From an uncultured bacterium (GTDB taxonomy: Bacteria; Chlamydiota; Chlamydiia; Chlamydiales; SM23-39), in contig CAZVHA010000004.1 in NCBI GenBank assembly GCA_964626905.1, positions 3,952 to 67,951 on the forward strand: a stretch of DNA of 64,000 nt, read 5' to 3'. Position 1 is the stretch's first letter, and every line of letters begins with the position of its first letter. This document shows, piece by piece, positions 3,468 through 49,225 of this stretch. Both the position numbers and the translations under genes were made by a program. Under the pieces are notes generated by a model. That model saw nothing but the letters and a program-made list of their open reading frames with translations, searched no databases and was not told the origin of the DNA.

Positions 3468-4118
3468 ATGCAAAAACCTGTTCTCGAAGAGATGTATCGC
3501 AAACATCACCAGAAGGGGCGCCGCTATGGCTATCTCTATTGCCATGGGAACCGGATCCCGTTTTTAAAAAAATGGATCGGAATGGGGAAAAAGGTGCTCG
3601 ATTTGGGCTGTCGCGACGGAATGCTCACGCAAGGGTTTTTGGAAGGGAATGAGGTGGTGGGTGTCGATGTCGATCGATATGCGCTCAGCCTTTGCAAAGA
3701 AAAATGGGGCATTGAAACCGCGTGGCTCGATCTCAATGTAGAGTGGCCGTGGGCTAAAGAGACATTTGATTGCATTGTCGCTTGCGAAATCGTCGAGCAT
3801 CTCTTTTTTTTACACCCGTTTTTAGAAAATGTGAAAAAAACGCTCAAACCCGGCGGACTCTTTATCGGCTCTGTCCCAAACGCCTTTCGACTCAAAAATC
3901 GGTGGAAGTTTTTGTTCGGGAATGAGTATGAGACAGACCCGACTCATGTGAGACAATTTTCCTATGATAAATTAAAAGAGGTTCTTCAGAGCTATTTTTC
4001 CCATGTTGAAATTGTCCCAATCGAGGGGAAAATTCCCCCCTTTTTCGGCGTGAGTGAAACATCTCCCAAATGGATTCAAAAACTCTTCAGTAAAGACCTT
4101 CTTTGGAAAGCAAAGTGA
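3468..4118 (+). CDS. Class I SAM-dependent methyltransferase
   Basis: Motif I VLDLGCRDG and post-I/II pattern (VVGVDVD, IVACEIVEHL, LKPGGLF). Confidence 0.75.
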   Translation: MQKPVLEEMYRKHHQKGRRYGYLYCHGNRIPFLKKWIGMGKKVLDLGCRDGMLTQGFLEGNEVVGVDVDRYALSLCKEKWGIETAWLDLNVEWPWAKETFDCIVACEIVEHLFFLHPFLENVKKTLKPGGLFIGSVPNAFRLKNRWKFLFGNEYETDPTHVRQFSYDKLKEVLQSYFSHVEIVPIEGKIPPFFGVSETSPKWIQKLFSKDLLWKAK

Positions 4119-30900: not shown

Positions 30901-31280
30901 AATGGGTGATCGCAAATCGGCTCTATATCGCCTGGACGATTGCTCTCGTCTCCGTTTTAGGAAGCCTCTATTTTGGCGAAGTGCTCCGCTTTGAGCCTTG
31001 CCGCCTTTGCTGGTATCAAAGAATTGCTATGTTCCCACTCGTTCTTTTTTTAGGGGTTGCCTTTTACAAAAATGAGTCGAAAGTGGCCCGCTATTGCTTG
31101 CCCTTGGTTTTTTTGGGCGCGCTTTTGGCCCTCTATCAATCGGCAAGCGCCCTCTTCCCAAGCATCCAACTCACAGCTTTTTGCAGCGAGTCATCCCCCT
31201 GTACAAGCATGGGATTTGCCCCCTACTTGAGCCTGATCGCCTTCTCTTCGATCGGTACTCTCATTTTCAAGGATTATTAA
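30897..31280 (+). CDS. dsbB: Disulfide bond formation protein B (BdbC-type)
   Basis: ATGA overlap with dsbA. CRLCWYQR motif, four TM segments and a second Cys pair (CSESSPC). The last codon and stop are contributed by the inserted MITE. Confidence 0.75.
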   Translation: MKWVIANRLYIAWTIALVSVLGSLYFGEVLRFEPCRLCWYQRIAMFPLVLFLGVAFYKNESKVARYCLPLVFLGALLALYQSASALFPSIQLTAFCSESSPCTSMGFAPYLSLIAFSSIGTLIFKDY

Positions 31281-32765: not shown

Positions 32766-32832
32766 GGGGTTTGCCCACTACTTGAGCCTGATCGCTTTCT
32801 CTTCGATTGGCACTCTCATTTTCAAAGATTAG
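32766..32832 (+). pseudogene. Orphan duplicate of the dsbB 3' end
   Basis: About 60/66 nt identical to 31211-31276. Encodes GFAHYLSLIAFSSIGTLIFKD* versus GFAPYLSLIAFSSIGTLIFKDY* in the intact gene. Confidence 0.75.
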
Positions 32833-38869: not shown

Positions 38870-39092
38870 GCCCTTAAGAACTGGGTTCACTTTATCCTCC
38901 CAGACACTCGCGATTCCCTTTCGGTGTAAGGACCCACCTCGACTTTGTGCAATTTTATGACTGGCTTCGCTAGCGGGTGATAGCTACAAGATCGGAGCAG
39001 ATCAAGGGGGGGGTGACAACTATTTTCTTAGCGTTGTAAAATGCTCCTCCATGACGTAAACCCGTTTCATTTAAGCAACAAAGGAGGTTGTT

Positions 39093-39449
39093 ATGACAAT
39101 ATGGATAAGAGAGGATATCAGATTAACCGCGCCGCTAGCCTTCGAAGATCAGGCCAAAAATGTAGTTGTTTTAGGGAAATTAACTTCTGATTTTGATGTA
39201 TCTTTTAAAGTTAAGAATTTGATTGTTTTTGGTGGAATTGTCTCCACAAAAAATGTTACCTTAAACACTACAGCTGATTTTTTTAATTCTGGTTCGATCA
39301 ACGGTTATAATGTACGTATTGTGTCTGATGCTAACATATACAATGGCCTTGATGATCGGGCCATTGAGAAAATAAGAGCTTTAGGCATTGACTTAGGTTT
39401 AACTCCTCGTATACCAGATGTGATAGAACAAAAAACAGAAGACAAATAG
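39093..39449 (+). CDS. Hypothetical protein (beta-helix-like repeats)
   Basis: 118-aa ORF with an aaaggagg SD, AT-rich. Alternating V/I/N pattern (NLIVFGGIVSTKNVTLNTTADFFNSGSINGYNVRIV). Confidence 0.4.
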   Translation: MTIWIREDIRLTAPLAFEDQAKNVVVLGKLTSDFDVSFKVKNLIVFGGIVSTKNVTLNTTADFFNSGSINGYNVRIVSDANIYNGLDDRAIEKIRALGIDLGLTPRIPDVIEQKTEDK

Positions 39450-39463
39450 CCTCCAAGCTTTAG

Positions 39464-39484
39464 CTTATTTGCATGCCGAGTTAA
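39464..39484. repeat. Solo copy of the MITE terminal repeat
   Basis: tatttgcatgccgagttaa (39466-39484) matches the right end of the 31277..31484 MITE (tatttgcatgccgggttaa) at 18/19 positions. Confidence 0.45.
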
Positions 39485-39504
39485 TGGCGTAGTGACAACG
39501 ATCT

Positions 39505-40749
39505 TTAACTGCTCTCTTTTTTTCCCCTGCCTGAGGAAGTTTTAAAACAAGAGAGAATTATGCAAAAAAGGAAAATGCCGAGATAAAACCAAGCCAGGGG
39601 GACCTGTGTTGTTATCCCGAGCAAAGAGGCGATCAGGCTCATGATTGTAACTCCGCCAATTGCCCAAAACCCAAAAACTGCACTAGAGGTCCCCGCAGAT
39701 TTGGAAAATAGGCTGACGCTCAGCGCCATCATATTCGGATAGATCAGGCCGCAAAAACAAAACAAGAAAAAGATCGGAATGATAAGAATATAGAGATTGG
39801 GCTGAATGAGAAGTCCCACCAGGAGAAGCAGAAGAGAGATACAGACGGTTGTAATAAGGCTAAAAAGGATGATTTTTAGCGTGTTGAAATGGTGTACAAG
39901 CCAAAAATTCAACAGATTGCCTAGAAAATAACCAGTTCCCAGCAACAGCGCAATATGTCCATAAGCAATCGCTGAATAATGGAGCGTCCCTTGGATCAAA
40001 AAAGGGGCAATCACGTTGAAGACAACAAGGGCCGCATAGACCAAAGAGGCAATCACTCCCCACCTGATAAACTGAGGATGAATCACAATGCTCCAAACCG
40101 TTTTTGCGATCTCGCGAAGATGGATCGGTTTTAGATCAAAATGGGTTTCAGGCAGAACGATCAGAGCATAGACAAAAGTGAAAAGGGCATAGAGGAAAAA
40201 GAAAGCAAAATTGGCCTGCCAACCAAAGTATTCTTGCAAATACCCTCCAATAAAAGGACCGATAATCGGACCTATTGCCCAACTTAGCGATATAAATGTC
40301 ATCGCCTTCACACGGGGAAGTCCAGAAAAACAATCGGCGACCATTGCGCGGCAAATAACGCCGCAACCGCCAATCGAACACCCTTGCAAAAATCGATAGA
40401 AAATGAGCATCTCAATACTTGAAGAGAATATCGCAAAAAGACTGGCAAGTGTATACACAGTCCCGCCCCCTACAAAAATTTTTCTCCTCCCCAAACTATC
40501 TGACAAAGTGCCTAATAAAAGTTGGGCAATCGCATATCCCAGCATGTAAAACCCAATCGTGAATTGTACCTCATGCCTTGGGACGTGAAAAAAACGGGCA
40601 ATCGCTGGCAAAGAAGGGACATAAAGATCAATACTCGACCCCATCAAAAAGGGGACCAAGAAAAGCAGGACAAAAATATGCTTTTTTTGCCTTGAAGAAA
40701 TTGCAGTTGTCACATTTTTACAGTAAAATACTATTGTCCATTTTTTCAA
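39505..40749 (-). CDS. MFS transporter (Bcr/CflA drug-efflux-like)
   Basis: 12-TM-like hydrophobic profile with the loop 2-3 motif GTLSDSLGRRKI. Confidence 0.85.
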   Translation of the reverse strand: MKKWTIVFYCKNVTTAISSRQKKHIFVLLFLVPFLMGSSIDLYVPSLPAIARFFHVPRHEVQFTIGFYMLGYAIAQLLLGTLSDSLGRRKIFVGGGTVYTLASLFAIFSSSIEMLIFYRFLQGCSIGGCGVICRAMVADCFSGLPRVKAMTFISLSWAIGPIIGPFIGGYLQEYFGWQANFAFFFLYALFTFVYALIVLPETHFDLKPIHLREIAKTVWSIVIHPQFIRWGVIASLVYAALVVFNVIAPFLIQGTLHYSAIAYGHIALLLGTGYFLGNLLNFWLVHHFNTLKIILFSLITTVCISLLLLLVGLLIQPNLYILIIPIFFLFCFCGLIYPNMMALSVSLFSKSAGTSSAVFGFWAIGGVTIMSLIASLLGITTQVPLAWFYLGIFLFCIILSCFKTSSGRGKKESS

Positions 40750-40786
40750 GTTCGTTTACGATCCTTTGCCTTTTGAAGGAGGTTCT

Positions 40787-41317
40787 ATGGCACCACTCTC
40801 GATAAATTCTCTCGATGGCAGTCAATATCAAAGCGTCCCAGTGTGCGAGGAGGGTGAGGAGGCGCACCTTCAGCAAGAAATTGAGCGAATGAAAATTCTT
40901 TTTCCCAAAGCTATTGCAAAGCGGTTTGGGGGATATGAAAAGATTGCACAGCTTCCCGTCCTGGAGCTCCCGTACCGCTTGATCGATCGGATACTCTATG
41001 TTCAAAATGCTGATGGATCAAGGAAGGTAATTGGGGAACCATCGCAGCGTTTAAATCAAACATGGATTGTCATCCAACCCGAATGGATGTCTCACGATCA
41101 GATGCGCGGAATCGATCTATTTGGTCGGCCTTTCATTGCCAAAAAAGAGGAGATGAAAATGCGTTTTGAAGATGTCGACAACGGGAGCGTAACATACCAG
41201 CCAATACCCTATGTATCTGAGGTCCATCCCGGACAAAAAGGGGGGAAAGATCTCCGTCTTCCCGTGAACAAAGAGTGGACTGCGAAGGATTGGGGAAGTT
41301 CTTGCGCTATTCTCTAG
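40787..41317 (+). CDS. Hypothetical protein ending in a CaaX-type motif (CAIL)
   Basis: ATG 40787 with a gaaggagg SD. 176 aa, no family recognised. C-terminus is ...DWGSSCAIL*. Confidence 0.5.
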   Translation: MAPLSINSLDGSQYQSVPVCEEGEEAHLQQEIERMKILFPKAIAKRFGGYEKIAQLPVLELPYRLIDRILYVQNADGSRKVIGEPSQRLNQTWIVIQPEWMSHDQMRGIDLFGRPFIAKKEEMKMRFEDVDNGSVTYQPIPYVSEVHPGQKGGKDLRLPVNKEWTAKDWGSSCAIL

Positions 41318-41325
41318 CAGCTACG

Positions 41326-41509
41326 GTGTATACTGCTCCCGTCCAAAAAGTGTGAATCTGCCGACGTCGGACAGCCACTGAATTTGAGACCTACCTGCAT
41401 CGCTCAACTTATTCAAGTTGAGCTGCTTCGGTGTCGGCAAAGCCTGGCTCAAATTCAGGGCGCCTCCTTGGCATTTTTCACTCTTTTTGAACGGTCGCAG
41501 TGTAAATAC
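41326..41509. repeat. Long imperfect palindromic element P1 (about 184 bp)
   Basis: The arms pair (ccgtccaaaaagtgtgaa with ttcactctttttgaacgg; ctgaatttgag with ctcaaattcag) around the core cctgcatcgctcaacttattcaagttgagctgcttcgg. Confidence 0.6.
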
Positions 41510-41525
41510 AAAATTTGATAGTCCC

Positions 41526-42065
41526 TTAGACTGGGACGTCTAGTTCGGTACCATTGCCAAGATTAGGTTGAATTTCTCCTTTTACGCAAAAGGAGCACGT
41601 TGTGAAGATATTGATTGCTACGAGTCCAAGTCCCGTTGCAATACCCCATAGGGCAAGCGCCTCTTCATTGGAAAAATCCTTGTCGGAGTAAATTGCATTT
41701 ATACCAGCGCGAGCTGAGAGTGCGCTTGCAAAAAAACCAACGCCATTACTGAGGAAAGTTCCTAGATTAAAAGTTCCTGCAGGATCAAAACAGGACTTTA
41801 CTCGTTCAGAGGAACACCGATTAAAGACAGTCGATGAAAACTTTTCTATGACCATTTTTACTATTTTGTGGGAAAATCCAGCGAAAACGCCAAATAAAGC
41901 TGAGCCAGGGGATCCAATAGAACTTTTTAAAATTGCCCCTGAGGCTACGCAAACGGCTGCCGGTAGCCCTATTGATACAAGGCGCGCACCTGATAGATAT
42001 AAATTTCTTGAGGTCTCTGCTGAGATTGACATAAAAAATTCCTTTGTAATTTTGCTGATCATCAT
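41526..42065 (-). CDS. Hypothetical multi-pass membrane protein
   Basis: 179-aa ORF, AT-richer, with several G/A/S-rich hydrophobic segments. No family recognised. Confidence 0.45.
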   Translation of the reverse strand: MMISKITKEFFMSISAETSRNLYLSGARLVSIGLPAAVCVASGAILKSSIGSPGSALFGVFAGFSHKIVKMVIEKFSSTVFNRCSSERVKSCFDPAGTFNLGTFLSNGVGFFASALSARAGINAIYSDKDFSNEEALALWGIATGLGLVAINIFTTCSFCVKGEIQPNLGNGTELDVPV

Positions 42066-42152
42066 ACACTGATGTGTTTATTAATATAAATGAAACAAAA
42101 AAGAATGTTATAAAACAATTACTTTAGATTAGATGCAACTAGACCTGTTTGT

Positions 42153-42259
42153 GTTGCCAATTGAGGAGTAAATTGAGATCTTTTTCTGTGATTCCAGAAA
42201 CAGAACGGATCTCCTCTTCACTTGCTTTTTTGAGCTTTTTTACGCTCCCAAATTTTTGC
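42153..42259 (-). pseudogene. Orphan duplicate of the uvrC 3' end
   Basis: 107 bp with 105/107 identity to 44955-45061, the last 35 or so codons of uvrC. Confidence 0.8.
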
Positions 42260-42315
42260 CCCCTCCAACATCGGTTGGGGTGACATTACAACTTTGGCCT
42301 TTGCGGTTTTTGATC

Positions 42316-42343
42316 TTGACACTTCAGGCCACTATACTATATA
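42316..42343 (+). promoter_or_regulatory. Candidate sigma-70-type promoter upstream of P2 and the YVTN gene
   Basis: TTGACA (42316-42321), 16-nt spacer, TATATA (42338-42343). By-eye match only. Confidence 0.25.
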
Positions 42344-42511
42344 CCCAACATGGTTCAAAATTTGGTTTTTGACTGCGTCGGCATCCCCATCTTTGAAGTC
42401 GCCTGCATCACCCAACTTGTTCAAGTTGGGTTGCTTCGGCGGCGCTTCGCTTCTTCAAATATGTGGCGCCGACTTTGTCAAATTCCCAAATTTTGAACCA
42501 CGTTGGGTATA
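42340..42511. repeat. Long imperfect palindromic element P2 (about 172 bp)
   Basis: The outer arms tatacccaacatggttcaaaatttgg and ccaaattttgaaccacgttgggtata pair at 25/26, and inner blocks also pair. Core cctgcatcacccaacttgttcaagttgggttgcttcgg is homologous to the P1 core. Confidence 0.65.
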
Positions 42512-42544
42512 CTTCACTCATCGAGAGTTCTTCATTGGAGGGTT

Positions 42545-43579
42545 ATGCGTCTGATTTTTCTCATTCTATTCACCAGCATTACGAGGACTGTTTTATCGTC
42601 ACCTTTTATTTGGGTGGCTAATTTCACTGGTAATACTGTATCGGTCATTGATGCGGCAACGAATCAATTAGTGACTCTCATTAGTCAAAGCGAGGGAATG
42701 TTTGACGGCCCATACTCTCTCGCGTTTACTCCCGATGGAAGTTTTGCTTATGTAGGGAATAATATTGGTGATACCGTCAGTGTTATCAATACTACAACAT
42801 TCCAATTGGTGACTCTCATCCCATTGAGCGGTGCTCTAAATAATGTAGTCGATGTTGAGGTCAGCCCGGCAGGTGATCTTGTTATGACCGCAAATTCCAA
42901 CTCCGGTAGAGTGAGCGTGATCAGTACAGCAACCAATACGGAGATTGCTACTCTTACCACGCACTTGGGGAGTCCTCAATGGATTGCTTTTTCGGCTGAT
43001 GGCACTCTTGCCTATGTAACAAACGGTGGACTTGGTAATATTGCCGTAATCAACACTGCAGCATTGACCGTTTCCCAGCCATCCGGGTTAGGTCTTGGGA
43101 GTATGGTCTATCCATATTCAATTGCTATAGCTCCAAATGGTGAATATGCTTACGTGACCAGCAGCGATATCGGTTTAGTTTACATTGTGAATCTACTCAA
43201 CAATACTGTTTCGGGATCTATTCCAATCGTTACCACACCCGGGCAGGTGGTTTTTGCTTCAGATGGCGCGACCGCTTATGTAGCTGATAATATTAATATT
43301 TCAGTAATCAATACCTCGAATCAGTCTGTGACGCAAATTACAGCAGGAATTAACGCTGCACTTTTCTTGGCTATATCATCTTCGCAAAGACTTTATGCGA
43401 CCAATCAAGGAACTGATGATGTGGCCGTTTTTTCAACAGTGACATTGGGTTTACTGGATACCATTACAACTGCCGAGGGAAGCTTTAATGATCCCTTGTT
43501 TATTCGCTTCCAACCAGAACCCGCCGCTTCTACGGGACAAAGGCCTTTTCAAAGGCCTTTAAACCGCAGGCCGAGGTAA
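42545..43579 (+). CDS. Secreted YVTN-family beta-propeller repeat protein
   Basis: ATG 42545 with a ggaggg SD. Signal peptide MRLIFLILFTSITRTVLS. Repeated roughly 40-aa units (AYVGNNIGDTVSVINT, AYVTNGGLGNIAVINT, AYVTSSDIGLVYIVN, AYVADNINISVINT). Confidence 0.75.
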   Translation: MRLIFLILFTSITRTVLSSPFIWVANFTGNTVSVIDAATNQLVTLISQSEGMFDGPYSLAFTPDGSFAYVGNNIGDTVSVINTTTFQLVTLIPLSGALNNVVDVEVSPAGDLVMTANSNSGRVSVISTATNTEIATLTTHLGSPQWIAFSADGTLAYVTNGGLGNIAVINTAALTVSQPSGLGLGSMVYPYSIAIAPNGEYAYVTSSDIGLVYIVNLLNNTVSGSIPIVTTPGQVVFASDGATAYVADNINISVINTSNQSVTQITAGINAALFLAISSSQRLYATNQGTDDVAVFSTVTLGLLDTITTAEGSFNDPLFIRFQPEPAASTGQRPFQRPLNRRPR

Positions 43580-43619
43580 GGGATCGTCTACAAAGTGAGG
43601 GTCTGTCATAGAACAACTT

Positions 43620-44870
43620 CTAAAAATCAAAGCGGCCCGTTATAGTAAGCCCATGAAAATAGAGACCCGAAGATGAGGAGGACGTTCCGGCTAGGGTGTC
43701 GTCCAATAATTTGCGAATCATGTTTTGATTCCACATGTAAGTGAAATCATAGGATGCGGAAAAGTCGAGATGGTAAAGACGCTCATAAAGATAAGTCCCC
43801 CAGCCAAGCCCAAGTCCAAGTTCTGCCATTGGGCTTAGACAATCGTAATCTCTTAAGAATGTCTTATAAGGGCCCGCGTTAAAAGCTCTGGATGCGCGAT
43901 CTTCTGAATGGCTCACTTTTATGAATTGAGTGTAAAGAAGACTGGCTGCTAAATCTGCCTCAAATCTTAACCCGTAACAAAGAAGACAATAAGCATCAGC
44001 CCCAAATTTAGGTCCAATCCCCCATGAACGGCTATAGTTTCGCGAACCAATCGGTTGAGGGGGCACTCCTGCAGAAAGCGAGGAGACAAAAGCTGCAGCT
44101 GGCTGAGTCATTTTGAGAATCAGTTTCTGCCTGATAAATGCGAGACGAAGCCCTCCATAAGGATTAACAACCAAACAAGGACCTTCATAAAAAGGGCGGC
44201 TTGCACAAAGATCTGCCAGATCGAGCGCATAATGCCATTTTGATGCAATTGCTGTTGCGGAGAGAGCTTGGCCAACCGATGTCCCATTTAAAAACCAATC
44301 TGCTACTAGCAAAACAGGAGTTCCGCTCAAAGCTGTGCTGGTCCCTGCAGTGCGGTCATTTGTGGGTGCTGAAATATGAGTTGTATTTGTCCCTCTAAGC
44401 CACGTGTATTCCGCATTCATTGACCAACTGTGATTTCCAACAAATCCAAGACCCAATTTAAAGCCCGGCTTATAATCAAAATTTTGATAGTAGGTGTATG
44501 TTTGAGTTGCAAAGAATACATTGGCCGCATTCAAAACTCCATTGGAAGCAATTGCCAGTCCTTCCTCTCCGCCAAACCAGTATAAAAGTGATGCATCAGC
44601 AAAGAATGCAACTTGAAATGGGCTGCACCTGATTTGAAATTCCCTGCCGCAAACATCCCAAATTGCAGGCACATTATAAGCTGGACCATATTGGCAGCAT
44701 AAAGGCTCGCCTTGCATCCAAGAACAAGTGGTGGGATCAGGGGTGGGACACGAGATGTCTGAGGTGCAAGGCTCAGCTTCGCATGGAGTGATTTGTTCTG
44801 GGACAACGTCTTGTTCTGAAACAACATCCGCAGCCATCCCAGAAACCAGTAAGAATATAAAGAGATTCAT
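43620..44870 (-). CDS. Putative cysteine-rich beta-barrel outer-membrane porin (MOMP-like)
   Basis: Signal peptide MNLFIFLLVSGMAA. Cys-rich N-terminal module (CEAEPCTSDISCPTPDPTTCSWMQGEPLCC). Alternating hydrophobic strands and a C-terminal ...TITGRFDF aromatic end. Confidence 0.6.
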   Translation of the reverse strand: MNLFIFLLVSGMAADVVSEQDVVPEQITPCEAEPCTSDISCPTPDPTTCSWMQGEPLCCQYGPAYNVPAIWDVCGREFQIRCSPFQVAFFADASLLYWFGGEEGLAIASNGVLNAANVFFATQTYTYYQNFDYKPGFKLGLGFVGNHSWSMNAEYTWLRGTNTTHISAPTNDRTAGTSTALSGTPVLLVADWFLNGTSVGQALSATAIASKWHYALDLADLCASRPFYEGPCLVVNPYGGLRLAFIRQKLILKMTQPAAAFVSSLSAGVPPQPIGSRNYSRSWGIGPKFGADAYCLLCYGLRFEADLAASLLYTQFIKVSHSEDRASRAFNAGPYKTFLRDYDCLSPMAELGLGLGWGTYLYERLYHLDFSASYDFTYMWNQNMIRKLLDDTLAGTSSSSSGLYFHGLTITGRFDF

Positions 44871-44946
44871 CTTCACAGATACACCCGATATGTCTTTCGG
44901 GATAACAGATTTTTGATTAATCATCTATACACTTTTTCAAGTGGAG

Positions 44947-46749
44947 TTATTTTCGTTGCCAATTGAGAAGTAAATTGAGATCTTTTTCTGTGATTCCAGA
45001 AACGGAACGGATCTCCTCTTCACTTGCTTTTTTGAGCTTTTTTACGCTCCCAAATTTTTGCAAAAGTCTTTTTTTCTTGATCGGCCCAATTCCAGGAAGA
45101 TCGTCGAGTTCACTTGCAATCGTTCTTCTCGCTCTTCGTTTTCGGTGAAATTCGATCGCCTGTTTGTGCGCCTCATCGCGCACCCTTTGGAGGAGGAAGA
45201 GGAGGGGAGAGCGCGGATCGATCAGAAAGGGATCTTTTCGATAGGGGACGTAGATCTTTTCTTGCGTGAGCCCCTTATCGTGCCGCGCCTCTTCTTTTGT
45301 GAGAGCGATCACATCGATCGAGGCGATTTTTAGTTCCTCAAACACATCGAGCGCAATGTTGAGCTGCCCCCTCCCTCCATCGACAATGAGAAGATCGCAA
45401 AAATCGTTTTTCTCTTTTTGTCTTGTAAAGTGGCGCAAAAGCACCTCTCTCATCGCCGTATAGTCATCCGCTGTTTTTTGCCCCTTGATTTTGAAAAGGC
45501 GCATTTTCGATTTCTCTTTTTCTCCATCGACAAAAGAGACAAGACTTGCCACCGGATCGCTTCCCGAAATGTTCGAAGTGTCAAAACACTCGATCCGCTT
45601 CGGAAAACGGGTGAGCTGCAGCGTCTCTTGCAGATCAAGGAGTCTCTTTTCCTTTAAACTGCGCGCATCTTGCTCTTTCATAAAAAGGGCTTTTGCATTG
45701 CGCCTGGCCATTTCGATTAAATCCCTCTTCTTCCCCTTTTGCGGCGCGTGAAGTGCACATTGAATCAGCTCTTCTACATCGCCTTGTTGGGGCAAAGCGT
45801 CTGGAATCAAAATCTCTTTCGGCAACTTTTCCTTGCCCTTATAGTGCTGCAAGAGAAATGATTCGACAATTTCCTCATCCTCCGATGCAATGCGCGTAAA
45901 ACTAAAATGTTCCGATCCGATCAATTTCCCCTCTCGAAAAAATAAGAGGGCCACCATCACCGCATCTGCCTCTCGATAAAGCCCTAGTGCATCGCAGCTC
46001 ATCGCCGCAATCTGATCCACATGTTGCGCCTCTGTCACATGCTCAATTTGCTGAATCATTCGCAAGTAGCGATCTGCCTGCTCAAATTCAAGCACATCAG
46101 AGGCTGCCCTCATCTGCTGTTTGAGATGCGCCAAAACGTCTTTGTCCTGCCCGCGCAAAAGGCGAATCGCCGACTCGACATGCTCCGCATAGTTTTTTTC
46201 TGTGCATTTGCCAACGCATGGGGCAATACAGCGCTTCATGTCGTATAGAAGACAGGGCCTTGTCCTTTGCATCAATTCCGCATCGGAACAGACCCGCAGT
46301 GGAAAAAGACGAGAAATCAGATCAAAAGTGGCCCTCGCCGCAAGGGCATTCGTATAGGGGCCAAAATAGATCCCCTCATTTTTCGCCCTTCCCTTATGGC
46401 GGACCAAGCGGATCATCGGCCATTTGTGTCTCGTCAACAGAAGACTCACAAATGTCTTATCGTCTTTCAATAGGATGTTGTATTTCGGAAGGTATTGCTT
46501 GATTAGATTGTTTTCTAAAATCAGCGCATCTTTTTCGGTTAGCGCCACAATCGGATCGATCGCCTCCACTTGCGCAATCAAATAGGGGACCATTGGCCGC
46601 CCATCACCCGACTCGGCAAAATATTGCTTGAGTCGCACCCTCAAATTCTTCGCTTTCCCCACATAAAGGACCATCCCATTTGCGTCTTTCATCAAATAGA
46701 CCCCCGGCTCTTCGGGATAAAGGGCCAGCGTTTTCGGATCAAACCCCAT
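44947..46749 (-). CDS. uvrC: Excinuclease ABC subunit C
   Basis: GIY-YIG (GVYLMKD..VLYVGKAKNL), a UVR domain, and a C-terminal (HhH)2 (LDDLPGIGPIKKKRLL). Confidence 0.95.
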   Translation of the reverse strand: MGFDPKTLALYPEEPGVYLMKDANGMVLYVGKAKNLRVRLKQYFAESGDGRPMVPYLIAQVEAIDPIVALTEKDALILENNLIKQYLPKYNILLKDDKTFVSLLLTRHKWPMIRLVRHKGRAKNEGIYFGPYTNALAARATFDLISRLFPLRVCSDAELMQRTRPCLLYDMKRCIAPCVGKCTEKNYAEHVESAIRLLRGQDKDVLAHLKQQMRAASDVLEFEQADRYLRMIQQIEHVTEAQHVDQIAAMSCDALGLYREADAVMVALLFFREGKLIGSEHFSFTRIASEDEEIVESFLLQHYKGKEKLPKEILIPDALPQQGDVEELIQCALHAPQKGKKRDLIEMARRNAKALFMKEQDARSLKEKRLLDLQETLQLTRFPKRIECFDTSNISGSDPVASLVSFVDGEKEKSKMRLFKIKGQKTADDYTAMREVLLRHFTRQKEKNDFCDLLIVDGGRGQLNIALDVFEELKIASIDVIALTKEEARHDKGLTQEKIYVPYRKDPFLIDPRSPLLFLLQRVRDEAHKQAIEFHRKRRARRTIASELDDLPGIGPIKKKRLLQKFGSVKKLKKASEEEIRSVSGITEKDLNLLLNWQRK

Positions 46750-49225
46750 CGAGTTTCTCGGATAGCTCTTTTAAGAGTAAAAGTTTGTGCTGAGCCTCCA
46801 GCGGTGTGAGGTTGAGTGGATCGATCTTTTGCAGTTCCTGGAAAAGAGGATGTTTTTGCGGCTCTTCGACAAAAAGAGAGAGCTGCGAAGTTTGACTCTG
46901 TTCGAGCTCTTCGAGCATCTTTTCCGCCCTCCGAATCGCCTTCTGCGGAATGCCCGCCAGCTTTGCCACGTGGATCCCATAACTCTTGTCTGTCCCGCCC
47001 CGCACAATCTTTCTCAAAAAAACAATCCCCGAGGGGGCCTCTTCTACTGCCGTTTGGAAATTGAGCGCATGGGAAAACTCGTTCTCGAGCTTGGTCAGCT
47101 CCCAGTAGTGGGTCGCAAAAAGGGTTTTGGCCATCTTCCGAGGCGTCGTCAATAGATACTCTGCCACCGCCCACGCAATCGATATGCCGTCGTAAGTGCT
47201 CGTCCCGCGCCCAATTTCATCGAGCAGCACGAGCGAGCGCGATGTCGCATTGTTGAGGATGTTTGCCGTCTCCGACATCTCCACCATGAATGTCGATTGC
47301 CCCCGCGCCAGATCGTCGCTTGCCCCAATGCGGGAAAACACCTTGTCAATCAGCCCAATGTGGGCCGATTTCGCAGGGACAAAAGAGCCCATTTGCGCAA
47401 GGATCGCAATGAGCGCCACCTGCCGAATATAGGTCGATTTTCCCGCCATGTTCGGCCCCGTGATCAACATCAATTGCTTCTCAGCATCCAGATGAGTGTC
47501 ATTCGGAATGAACGCCGCTTTTCCAATCGCCTTCTCAATCACCGGATGGCGCCCCTCAACAATCTCAAAAACAGCCGATTCATCGACCTGCGGTCGCACC
47601 CAACCATACATCTGCGCCACCTTCGCAAACGAGAGAAAAACGTCCTGTTTGGCAATGGCTATTGCAGCTGCATGGACAGAAGGGGCCTCCCTCGCAACCT
47701 CCTTTTTAAGCTCTTCAAAACACTCGATCTCAATCGCCTTAAGCCGCTCTTCTGCCGTGAGCACTTGATGCTCAAACTCCTTTAGCTCTTGCGTGATAAA
47801 CCTTTCCGCATTGATGAGCGTTTGGCGCCTTTGAAAGGAAGGGGGGACTTTTTCACTTTGCGCCCGGCTCACCTCAATATAATACCCAAACGCCTTGGTA
47901 TAGCCCACTTTGAGCGTCTTTATTCCGCTCTCTTCTCTCAATCGGATCTGATACCCCGCCATCCAACTCATCGAGTCTCTACACAACTTGCGCAGCTCGT
48001 CGATCTCTTTTTTGTACCCCTCTTTAAAAAGATCCCCTTCCCCCACTCTCAAAGGGGGAGACTCGTTCATCGCATTCAAAATAGTTGTGGCGAGGTTTTC
48101 AGCGTCGAACAGCGAAGGGAGATCGAGCGTTTTTTTAAGGAGGGGAAGGTGCGATAGAGAAGTCCCGAGCGCATAGACGTCGCGCGGCGAGGCAAACCCG
48201 GATGAAATTCTCATCATGAGCCGCTCAATATCGCGTATTTGAGAGAGGATTTCACGCCCCCTTTTGCTCGCCTCAAAGCGATCCATGTAGGAGGAAATCT
48301 GCTCTTGTCTCTCTGCGATCTCGCGTGGACAAAGGAGCGGCGTTTGGATCCACTTTCGAATGAGCCTTCCCCCCATCGGCGTATAGGTCTCATCGAGAAG
48401 ATCGGTAAGTTCTGTGTCGATCCCTAAATTGCGCATTGTCGAACGGTCGATCGCCATCTGCTCTTTTGTCTCAGACTCAATCGAGCGAATGTGCTCGAGA
48501 TTTAACCCCAGCTCCTCCTTCAGATAAAGAAGGAGCGCGCCCGCTGCGCAAATGGCCGCTTGTCTGTTTTTTAACCCAAACCCATCCAGCGTTTCGACGT
48601 CAAAATGGCTCTTCAACACCTCTGTGCTCAAATCGAGCCCGAGCCCTTTGCGCTCATTTGCTAAAAAGCCAAAGTGAAAAGAGAGCTCCTTTAAAAAAGG
48701 AAAAGGCTCTGGGACGAGAATCTCACTCGGCTTTAAACGGCAAAGCTCGTCGATCGCCTTTGGTTCACTCACCTGTTCAAACACCCGAAATTCGCAGGTC
48801 GTCACATCGAGCGCGCCAATTCCATAAGTGGAGCCCCATTTTGCAACCGAGACAAAGTAGTTGTTTTTCTTGTCATGCAAAAGACCCGAATTGACAATCG
48901 TTCCCGGCGTCACAATCCGGACGATTTCCCTCTTGACAATCCCTTTGGCCTCCTTTGGATCTTCCATCTGCTCGGCAATCGCAATCTTAAACCCCTTCGC
49001 AATCAGCTTGTCGATATAACTCTCTGCCGTGTGAAAAGGGACGCCGCACATCGGAATTCCCTGGCGCGCCGTAAGCGTCAACCCAATCTCTTTCGAAATG
49101 AGAGTGGCATCTTCATAAAACGCCTCGTAAAAATCGCCGAGGCGAAATAAGAGAAGCGCCTCTTTCGCCTCCTCTTTGCACGCTTGCCACTGCGTCATCA
49201 TCGGTGTGTTTGTTGGGCCACTCAT
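46739..49225 (-). CDS. mutS: DNA mismatch repair protein MutS
   Basis: TPMMTQW, GDFYE, GPNMAGKST, DEIGRGTST and THYWEL motifs. Confidence 0.95.
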   Translation of the reverse strand: MSGPTNTPMMTQWQACKEEAKEALLLFRLGDFYEAFYEDATLISKEIGLTLTARQGIPMCGVPFHTAESYIDKLIAKGFKIAIAEQMEDPKEAKGIVKREIVRIVTPGTIVNSGLLHDKKNNYFVSVAKWGSTYGIGALDVTTCEFRVFEQVSEPKAIDELCRLKPSEILVPEPFPFLKELSFHFGFLANERKGLGLDLSTEVLKSHFDVETLDGFGLKNRQAAICAAGALLLYLKEELGLNLEHIRSIESETKEQMAIDRSTMRNLGIDTELTDLLDETYTPMGGRLIRKWIQTPLLCPREIAERQEQISSYMDRFEASKRGREILSQIRDIERLMMRISSGFASPRDVYALGTSLSHLPLLKKTLDLPSLFDAENLATTILNAMNESPPLRVGEGDLFKEGYKKEIDELRKLCRDSMSWMAGYQIRLREESGIKTLKVGYTKAFGYYIEVSRAQSEKVPPSFQRRQTLINAERFITQELKEFEHQVLTAEERLKAIEIECFEELKKEVAREAPSVHAAAIAIAKQDVFLSFAKVAQMYGWVRPQVDESAVFEIVEGRHPVIEKAIGKAAFIPNDTHLDAEKQLMLITGPNMAGKSTYIRQVALIAILAQMGSFVPAKSAHIGLIDKVFSRIGASDDLARGQSTFMVEMSETANILNNATSRSLVLLDEIGRGTSTYDGISIAWAVAEYLLTTPRKMAKTLFATHYWELTKLENEFSHALNFQTAVEEAPSGIVFLRKIVRGGTDKSYGIHVAKLAGIPQKAIRRAEKMLEELEQSQTSQLSLFVEEPQKHPLFQELQKIDPLNLTPLEAQHKLLLLKELSEKLDGV

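Follow-up and report, generated by a model that had tools for sequence, protein, structure and literature searches.

A duplicated uvrC 3′ end brackets an accessory porin/beta-propeller cassette in an uncultured chlamydial genome

Results

A copied gene end on either side of two surface-protein genes

In an uncultured member of the Chlamydiota (Chlamydiales; SM23-39), the genes for a porin and a secreted beta-propeller protein lie between the 3′ end of uvrC and a second, orphan copy of that gene end. We studied them in a window of 64,000 nucleotides, the whole stretch of DNA that was analysed (positions 3,952 to 67,951 of contig CAZVHA010000004.1, GenBank assembly GCA_964626905.1); the genome, labelled G000, is a 1.72-Mb metagenome-assembled bin of 11 contigs and 95% completeness. 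The porin/propeller pair is an accessory cassette added at an insertion hotspot between uvrC and an Asp23-family gene, atop an older islet. Homology-driven routes, in which the gene end of a related strain would be imported together with its cargo, may explain the duplication, with a probability that we put at about 0.5.

The orphan (H1) and the in-gene copy (H2) are identical at 105 of 107 positions by repeat search and pairwise alignment, and a whole-genome search with the 107-bp repeat returned exactly two copies (E = 8e-60 and 4e-48). A looser extension (42136–42259 and 44938–45061) covers 124 nt at 93% identity, its added 17 nt being only about half identical. The identity of H2 to H1 ends 6 nt short of the uvrC stop codon, and the predicted C-termini differ: intact uvrC ends in NWQRK, whereas the open frame of H1 ends in NWQHKQV, its terminus reading QKFGSVKKLKKASEEEIRSVSGITEKDLNLLLNWQHKQV before the stop. 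The intact gene, 74–77% identical to same-genus orthologues, is the last of a same-strand run glyQS–mutS–uvrC. Scans for promoters and terminators showed no excess of matches over shuffled sequence, and no match within the repeat.

The porin gene has the same orientation as uvrC. Its product matches PF05150 over residues 111–429 (E = 2e-16; 60.1 bits, cut-off 25.4), and relatives carry the NCBI name "Lpg1974 family pore-forming outer membrane protein". An internal ATG near 44870 is likely the true start, as indicated by the orthologue in a same-genus genome (G010) and by hydrophobicity at the N-terminus. G000 encodes 12 porin paralogues. Tail-to-tail with the porin gene lies the propeller gene, whose product matches TIGR02276 in four stretches (E = 1.7e-29; 101.5 bits, cut-off 27.85) and is called in other assemblies as a 344-aa protein starting at ~42545.

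A preliminary description of this DNA had reported the 105/107 identity, taken the second copy for the genuine end of uvrC and the first for an orphan, and placed a palindromic element (P2), a YVTN beta-propeller and a Cys-rich barrel resembling the major outer membrane protein (MOMP) between them. Repeat search and alignment, with just two copies genome-wide, the assignment of one copy to codons 564–598 and of the other to a start-less frame, and the open reading frames (ORFs) and profile matches all agree with this account.

The cassette is non-syntenic and patchy

The porin/propeller cassette is non-syntenic, patchy and accessory. The closest same-genus relative of the porin (73% identity) sits at a different locus in G010, tail-to-tail beside a 50% identical propeller as in G000, and the pair is flanked there by a major facilitator superfamily (MFS) gene and a Kdo-hydroxylase-like gene. 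In a third species (L119), a porin alone (67% identity) occupies this same site, which is empty in G000, where the orthologues of the flanking genes are only 56 bp apart. The G010 copy has no flanking repeats and no uvrC-like flank; extra genes of 710 and 121 aa also lie at its site.

The cargo has a GC content at third codon positions (GC3) of 0.37–0.38, against 0.52 ± 0.075 in the long ORFs of G000 (∼2 standard deviations lower) and 0.43–0.58 in the other porin paralogues; the GC3 of the G010 copy is likewise atypical for its host. The earlier suggestion that surface-protein cargo was brought into the uvrC 3′ end is thus upheld by its different placement in G010 and L119, by empty sites in relatives and by its low GC3.

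The uvrC/Asp23 junction is an insertion hotspot

Empty sites, which the preliminary description had proposed to seek by aligning related genomes, were found in 15 relatives, where mutS–uvrC is followed by a convergent Asp23-family gene across a gap of 0–2 kb. In G011, G006, G002, G015, G027 and many others, the two genes meet end to end or overlap, while in other same-genus species 0.5–2 kb of unrelated genes intervene; G004 has endonuclease V and Tag there, G001 a nucleotidyltransferase/HEPN-like pair, and others small orphan proteins. The porin, propeller, orf179, orf183 and MFS gene are all absent downstream of uvrC in the 15 relatives, and the whole of 38870–44946, older islet included, is therefore lineage-specific.

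We further read the spacing from coordinates in the 57 of 103 family genomes that have both genes on one contig. It is <100 bp in about 26 of the 57, and 31 hold between 150 bp and 16 kb of unrelated DNA; the uvrC/Asp23 junction is a family-wide insertion hotspot. No uvrC orphan remnants were present in the 0.5–2 kb gaps of G004, G010, G012, G001 and G003, and the whole 165-aa Asp23-family protein, used as query, found no orphan fragment among the family genomes.

Independent assemblies and strain variation

Both junctions recur in independent assemblies from four other samples, built with different k-mers (119, 139 and 141), and one of these contigs spans both repeat copies. A 6.4-kb k139 contig (L113) shows the same junctions with only 2 single-nucleotide polymorphisms (SNPs) relative to G000, and a strain 98.4–99.3% identical to G000 (L118) has the same structure. 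Because these assemblies reproduce both junctions, a chimera is very unlikely as their source, although the genome is a metagenome-assembled bin whose contigs elsewhere break at repeats: two strain haplotypes joined through the repeat would not be expected in four assemblies, one from a distinct strain, and no other sequence has more than ∼10 nt in common with the inner joint. The species is present in samples ERZ27284375, ERZ27284376, ERZ27284380, ERZ27247831 and SRR8863435. No empty-site contig was present in the assemblies looked up, and metagenome scans returned nothing for orf179 and only a 53% relative for the porin.

H1 and the cassette are older than the split of strains differing by 0.7–1.6%. 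The event had been called recent on account of the near-identical repeats; the near-identity stands, but the insertion predates this split, and only the miniature inverted-repeat transposable element (MITE) P2 is strain-specific.

Both SNPs of L113 (L113:3592 and 3604; window 42241 and 42229), its sole differences from G000 over 6.4 kb, fall at third codon positions inside the 107-bp orphan. Gene conversion between the copies was considered, and with L118 as outgroup both changes seem to have arisen in L113; strain mixture in the repeat, gene conversion or chance may account for them. The junction beside H2 is itself polymorphic between strains. In L118 (L118:1-100, from ERZ27247831; window 44925–44990), uvrC carries TGG>TGA four codons ahead of its usual stop, and a longer sequence, in which 11 nt are duplicated in tandem, takes the place of the uvrC–porin spacer.

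The same layout recurs at other genes and in other genera

Other duplicated gene 3′ ends, which the preliminary description had thought worth seeking, exist at no fewer than four further places in G000 (Table 1). In a self-comparison of the genome, a gene's last 60–110 bp and an orphan 0.5–3.5 kb downstream bracket accessory genes at each of them. The dsbB repeat ends exactly at the TAG stop codon once a MITE is removed, and in relatives only 50–70 bp separate dsbB from the next gene. No boundary motif is common to the G000 brackets, which lie at unrelated genes.

Several of these loci have features of their own. At the FecR-domain gene, the stop of the toxin gene overlaps that of the FecR-domain gene (CTAA), and the C1:581447 locus is more complex, with an extra 283-bp repeat (99%) past the orphan. 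A 510-bp direct repeat (99.2%; G000:C4:94653-95162 and 97370-97879), 2.7 kb apart and outside the window, also overlaps gene ends.

Orphans of the species' own uvrC 3′ end occur in three other genomes. In G013, an orphan of 110 bp (90% identity) brackets 6 kb with a NACHT NTPase; a 3.2-kb contig of G113 is bounded by uvrC-end copies and carries a leucine-rich repeat (LRR) protein; and the two orphans of G090 are accompanied by an F-box protein and a HigBA-like pair. Repeat lengths across the four genomes are 107, 110, ≥300 and 192–339 bp, and the inner boundaries lie at codons 564 (G000), 556 (G013), ∼493 (G113) and ∼490–530 (G090). In G090 (L068:1-900, L067:2100-2406), tandem repeats of ∼102 bp come after both the uvrC end and the orphan copies. 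A putative orphan in G054 (38% at the protein level) showed no DNA-level similarity to that genome's own uvrC and was not counted.

No recombinase in the brackets

The preliminary description had noted the lack of an integrase in the window, which our analysis confirms, and had nevertheless proposed site-specific integration into the uvrC 3′ end. The latter is not supported: none of the eight brackets examined contains a recombinase, repeat boundaries vary, and the same layout appears at unrelated genes without a shared motif. Genome-wide profile searches found two tyrosine recombinases of 299 aa, the size of XerC/D (PF00589), and one 194-aa resolvase (PF00239). None lies near the uvrC site; the bin is 95% complete, and a missing contig could hold one. 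The uvrC-end insertions of the four genomes, with their varying lengths and inner boundaries, share no conserved crossover core.

Copies diverge by synonymous changes and end at stop codons

We classified differences between gene copy and orphan by codon position. In the young pairs, the synonymous share was 10/10 in G113, 5/6 at dsbB, 5/7 at the FecR-domain gene, 2/2 at uvrC of G000 and 1/1 for the second G090 orphan. Pooled, 23 of 26 differences are synonymous, compared with an expected fraction of ∼0.42 under neutral decay of the orphan (p ∼ 1e-6), which argues that the young copies diverged while both were coding. This pattern points to divergence in separate genomes, or on an element whose copy was translated when integrated. 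The older pairs show mixed changes (3/11 synonymous in G013, 4/9 for the first G090 orphan, 2/7 at C1:98402), as expected once an orphan decays.

Outer repeat boundaries fall at −6, 0, 0 and +2 nt from the stop codon, and at 0 for the first G090 orphan. This is where homology between strains with differing downstream content would end. Inner boundaries share no common motif, and that of uvrC cuts a terminal repeat of an insertion sequence (IS). Taken together, synonymous divergence and boundaries at gene ends argue against a long target-site duplication and for the import of a related strain's gene end with its cargo.

Mobile sequences around the bracket

P2 scores as a hairpin (z = −12.6) and has at least 20 copies in G000, the best 99.4% identical. 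L118 lacks it, the empty site being clean and flanked by TA. A mobile element in its own right, P2 entered the bracket later than the cassette and H1.

Next to H1 lies a solo terminal repeat of an IS-like element (Table 1), matched at 22 of 26 positions to the IS end found at the ends of contigs C1 and C10; apart from one degenerate site, it is the only internal occurrence of the 19-nt IS unit in the assembly. The IS interior would face H1, and the 42259/42260 joint thus cuts a former IS copy and looks like an illegitimate joint or a deletion endpoint. The window holds no partner for this end, and the older islet is therefore not a complete transposon.

The IS-like element itself (∼1.45 kb) is collapsed at four G000 contig ends (C1 start, C10 start, C6 end and C7 end). 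Its ends start with TGT and contain a pair of 19-nt repeat units at a spacing of 27 nt. Target duplications of 15 bp join C7-end to C1-start (TTCAGAACTTTTGAC) and C6-end to C10-start (CGACAAAATAAATTC), and a full copy with a ∼17-bp duplication is present in a metagenome-assembled genome of the Parachlamydiales (L085:5418-6914). A Pfam search with the transposase fragment matched no family; judging by its 15–17-bp duplications, the element may resemble the IS1202 group.

The C-terminus of orf183, in the older islet, reads CAIL.

Table 1. Features of the uvrC region and of similar brackets in G000. Positions without a prefix refer to the window, counted from its first letter; C, contig of G000.
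Feature	Position	Strand	Remarks
H2, in-gene repeat copy	44955-45061	-	uvrC codons 564-598
H1, orphan copy of uvrC 3′ end	42153-42259	-	open frame without start codon; stop at ~42136
uvrC, intact, 600 aa	44947-46749	-	Pfam GIY-YIG, UvrC_RNaseH, HHH_5 (full domain set)
mutS, upstream of uvrC in same-strand run	46739-49225	-	Pfam MutS_I-V; synteny with uvrC kept in relatives
Cargo gene 1, Lpg1974/Legionella_OMP-type (MOMP-like) porin, Cys-rich N-terminal module	43620-44924	-	PF05150
Cargo gene 2, secreted YVTN-repeat beta-propeller	42503-43579	+	TIGR02276; Pfam propeller families
P2, palindromic MITE, 172 bp	42340-42511	.	26-nt terminal inverted repeats
Solo, slightly degenerate terminal repeat of ~1.45-kb IS-like element	42279-42304	-	22/26 match to IS end
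Older lineage-specific islet	38870-42135	.	between H1 and Asp23-family gene; ORFs and Pfam
orf179	41526-42065	-	older islet
Related palindrome core	41394-41436	.	older islet
orf183	40766-41317	+	older islet; no Pfam or NCBIfam match
MFS transporter	39505-40749	-	older islet
118-aa ORF	39093-39449	+	older islet
Asp23-family gene, 165 aa	38372-38869	+	ancestral convergent neighbour of uvrC; PF03780 in precomputed gene calls
dsbB 3′ end, 66 bp	31211-31276 / 32766-32831 (G000:C4:35162/36717)	.	cargo: MITE and single AAA_14-DUF4143 ATPase gene
FecR-domain gene 3′ end, 106 bp, 93%	G000:C1:21516-23532	.	cargo: AbiEii/DUF6088 type IV toxin-antitoxin pair
Gene end, 60 bp	C1:98402	.	cargo: HTH antitoxin
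Gene end, 85 bp	G000:C1:581447-585855	.	cargo: LRR-NEL (novel E3 ligase) effector-like gene and DUF4143 ATPase; near contig end
MFS/Kdo-hydroxylase-like site	G000:C5:79515-79571; L062:9829-14805; L119:1703-2911	.	56-bp gap in G000; holds porin clade in G010 and L119

Discussion

Import of a related strain's gene end as the favoured route

Under the homology-driven reading, incoming DNA from a close relative would have carried its own 3′ part of uvrC, followed by the porin, the propeller and, further on, an IS. On one side, it would have been joined by homologous recombination within uvrC, and on the other by a non-homologous joint between the truncated IS copy and the recipient uvrC at codon 564, leaving the recipient's own terminal 107 bp as an orphan ahead of orf179. 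Equivalent routes would be homology-facilitated illegitimate recombination or RecA-mediated, Campbell-type integration, in which a single homologous crossover with a circularised fragment would yield the same product. No dedicated integrase would take part in any of them.

Uptake of DNA is plausible in this lineage, as G000 encodes a ComEC-like channel (PF03772 Competence, 136 bits; G000:C2:243953-244747), and Chlamydia takes up DNA in a ComEC-dependent manner and integrates it by homologous recombination (PMC6686042). In crosses between Chlamydia trachomatis and C. suis, imports were bracketed by a duplicated, third rRNA operon, and the operon count subsequently returned to normal through a deletion between two of them (PMC3703283).

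Several observations weigh against this reading. The end of uvrC is duplicated in four lineages and that of the Asp23-family gene never, a bias that the homology model alone does not explain; we assume that it stems from the longer, better conserved mutS–uvrC anchor. A recipient type would have uvrC ending in HKQV directly ahead of orf179, yet all contigs with an exact UvrC, porin or orf179 share one arrangement, and neither donor nor recipient type appeared in the thin sampling of five samples. The argument from alleles is also weak for the uvrC pair of G000, which differs at only two positions, both synonymous. H2 of L118 carries the H1 state at one of these; that difference probably arose later, by synonymous change in the functional gene, and the G000 copies may have been identical at birth.

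Alternative explanations

A broader proposal, which we advance tentatively and would give about half the weight of the favoured route, is that conserved gene 3′ ends form an integrase-free cassette system in environmental chlamydiae or, under the same guarded estimate, that an unrecognised trans-acting enzyme targets gene ends. Accessory genes might then travel between strains attached to the last ∼100–300 bp of a core gene; host recombination would insert them, stacking them at hotspots of the uvrC/Asp23 type, and they could pop out again via the duplicated ends.

Integration of a small element with an attP that resembles the uvrC 3′ end, and with a tyrosine or serine recombinase since lost or acting in trans, seems unlikely. 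Such an element would bring a replacement uvrC terminus, in keeping with the exchanged final codons (RK against HKQV), and would fit the reuse of one gene end in four genomes of three genera, the position of new cargo always beside intact uvrC with older cargo pushed outward (G000, G090) and the similar inner boundaries of the two same-genus cases (codons 564 and 556). Divergence by synonymous changes only is also expected if an element-borne gene end is translated while integrated. Against it stand the eight brackets without a recombinase in a genome with just the two tyrosine recombinases and the short resolvase, repeats whose length varies between 107 and at least 300 bp and whose inner boundaries differ, the identical layout at unrelated genes lacking a common motif, cargo that is unrelated from case to case and a G010 cassette with no uvrC-like flank.

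Just as improbable, in our judgement, is a two-step history in which a merodiploid was later trimmed. A larger tandem partial duplication, with donor uvrC–cassette beside recipient uvrC–orf179, would have lost all DNA from the IS to codon 563 in the second copy of uvrC, H1 being what remained. The third rRNA operon that was later deleted from the C. trachomatis × C. suis imports (PMC3703283) speaks for such a history, as does the inner joint of H1 within a truncated IS, and the allele-like differences in other pairs are compatible with it. Besides requiring two steps, it gives no account of why exactly the terminal 60–340 bp up to the stop survive every time, and G000 contains no larger partial gene copies.

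Slightly less probable again is duplication of a 107-bp target in situ, through widely staggered breaks that were filled in, as with IS1634-type elements, or through replication template switching, with the copies diverging in place. In its favour, the copies are 98% identical and, by the polarity of the L118 change, were possibly identical at origin, and an IS remnant lies at the joint. However, the insert has neither terminal inverted repeats nor a transposase, the resident IS family makes duplications of 15–17 bp, and outer boundaries coincide with stop codons, unlike a random stagger. Nor would a neutrally decaying orphan be expected to show 10/10 synonymous differences over 300 bp, as in G113, or 10/13, as at dsbB and the FecR-domain gene combined.

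Relation to known systems

Prochlorococcus islands known as tycheposons offer one parallel, being hotspots with partial target-gene copies separating stacked cargo modules, many of which lack an integrase of their own. They differ in having tRNA genes as their targets and, as a family, defined tyrosine recombinases, an enzyme type not found in the G000 brackets.

Islands placed by tyrosine recombinases at the 3′ ends of protein-coding genes include SGI1 at trmE (PMC8409611, PMC6531882) and GIsul2 (PMC9376610). As in these, direct repeats flank the cargo, one being the functional gene end and the other an orphan, and one gene end is reused, with accretion beside the intact gene. The uvrC bracket nevertheless falls outside this class, since it lacks a recombinase and a conserved crossover core. 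It has no integrase or excisionase, its repeat is at least 107 bp against 18 bp in SGI1, repeat length and boundaries vary by lineage, several unrelated genes are used and the cargo is limited to one or two genes.

The favoured import route has closer counterparts in homology-facilitated illegitimate recombination of naturally transformable bacteria (PMC3240628, PMC3410848) and in merodiploids generated by transformation (PMC3784515). In the former, one homologous anchor and one non-homologous joint likewise place foreign DNA beside a conserved gene, and the process depends on DNA-uptake and RecA functions, for the first of which the ComEC-like channel of G000 would be suited; the classical form, unlike the uvrC case, replaces recipient DNA and leaves no duplicated gene end. 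Neither process is known from chlamydiae or known to leave gene-end orphans regularly, and the route proposed here is read from sequence alone. The products of lateral transfer in Chlamydia come from the same phylum and are likewise imports with a copy of one homologous segment on either side (PMC3703283), but they involve a whole rRNA operon, tens of kilobases and antibiotic selection in the laboratory, compared with ∼100 bp and 2.7 kb in nature here. Our literature search found neither a uvrC-targeting island nor such a pattern in chlamydiae.

Accounts of chlamydial genomes usually stress their stability, their synteny and their paucity of mobile elements, and the routes by which environmental members gain effectors, toxin–antitoxin modules and surface proteins are poorly understood. 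The succession of core gene 3′ end, cargo and orphan copy marks small integrase-free insertions that recur within G000 and across genera of the family, which suggests that accessory genes are gained by homology-anchored recombination rather than through a dedicated integrase. If the homology-driven route is true, ordinary recombination between co-infecting strains would suffice to shuffle cassettes of surface antigens and effectors, and orphan gene ends in metagenome bins could be used as markers of how many such events took place, and when.

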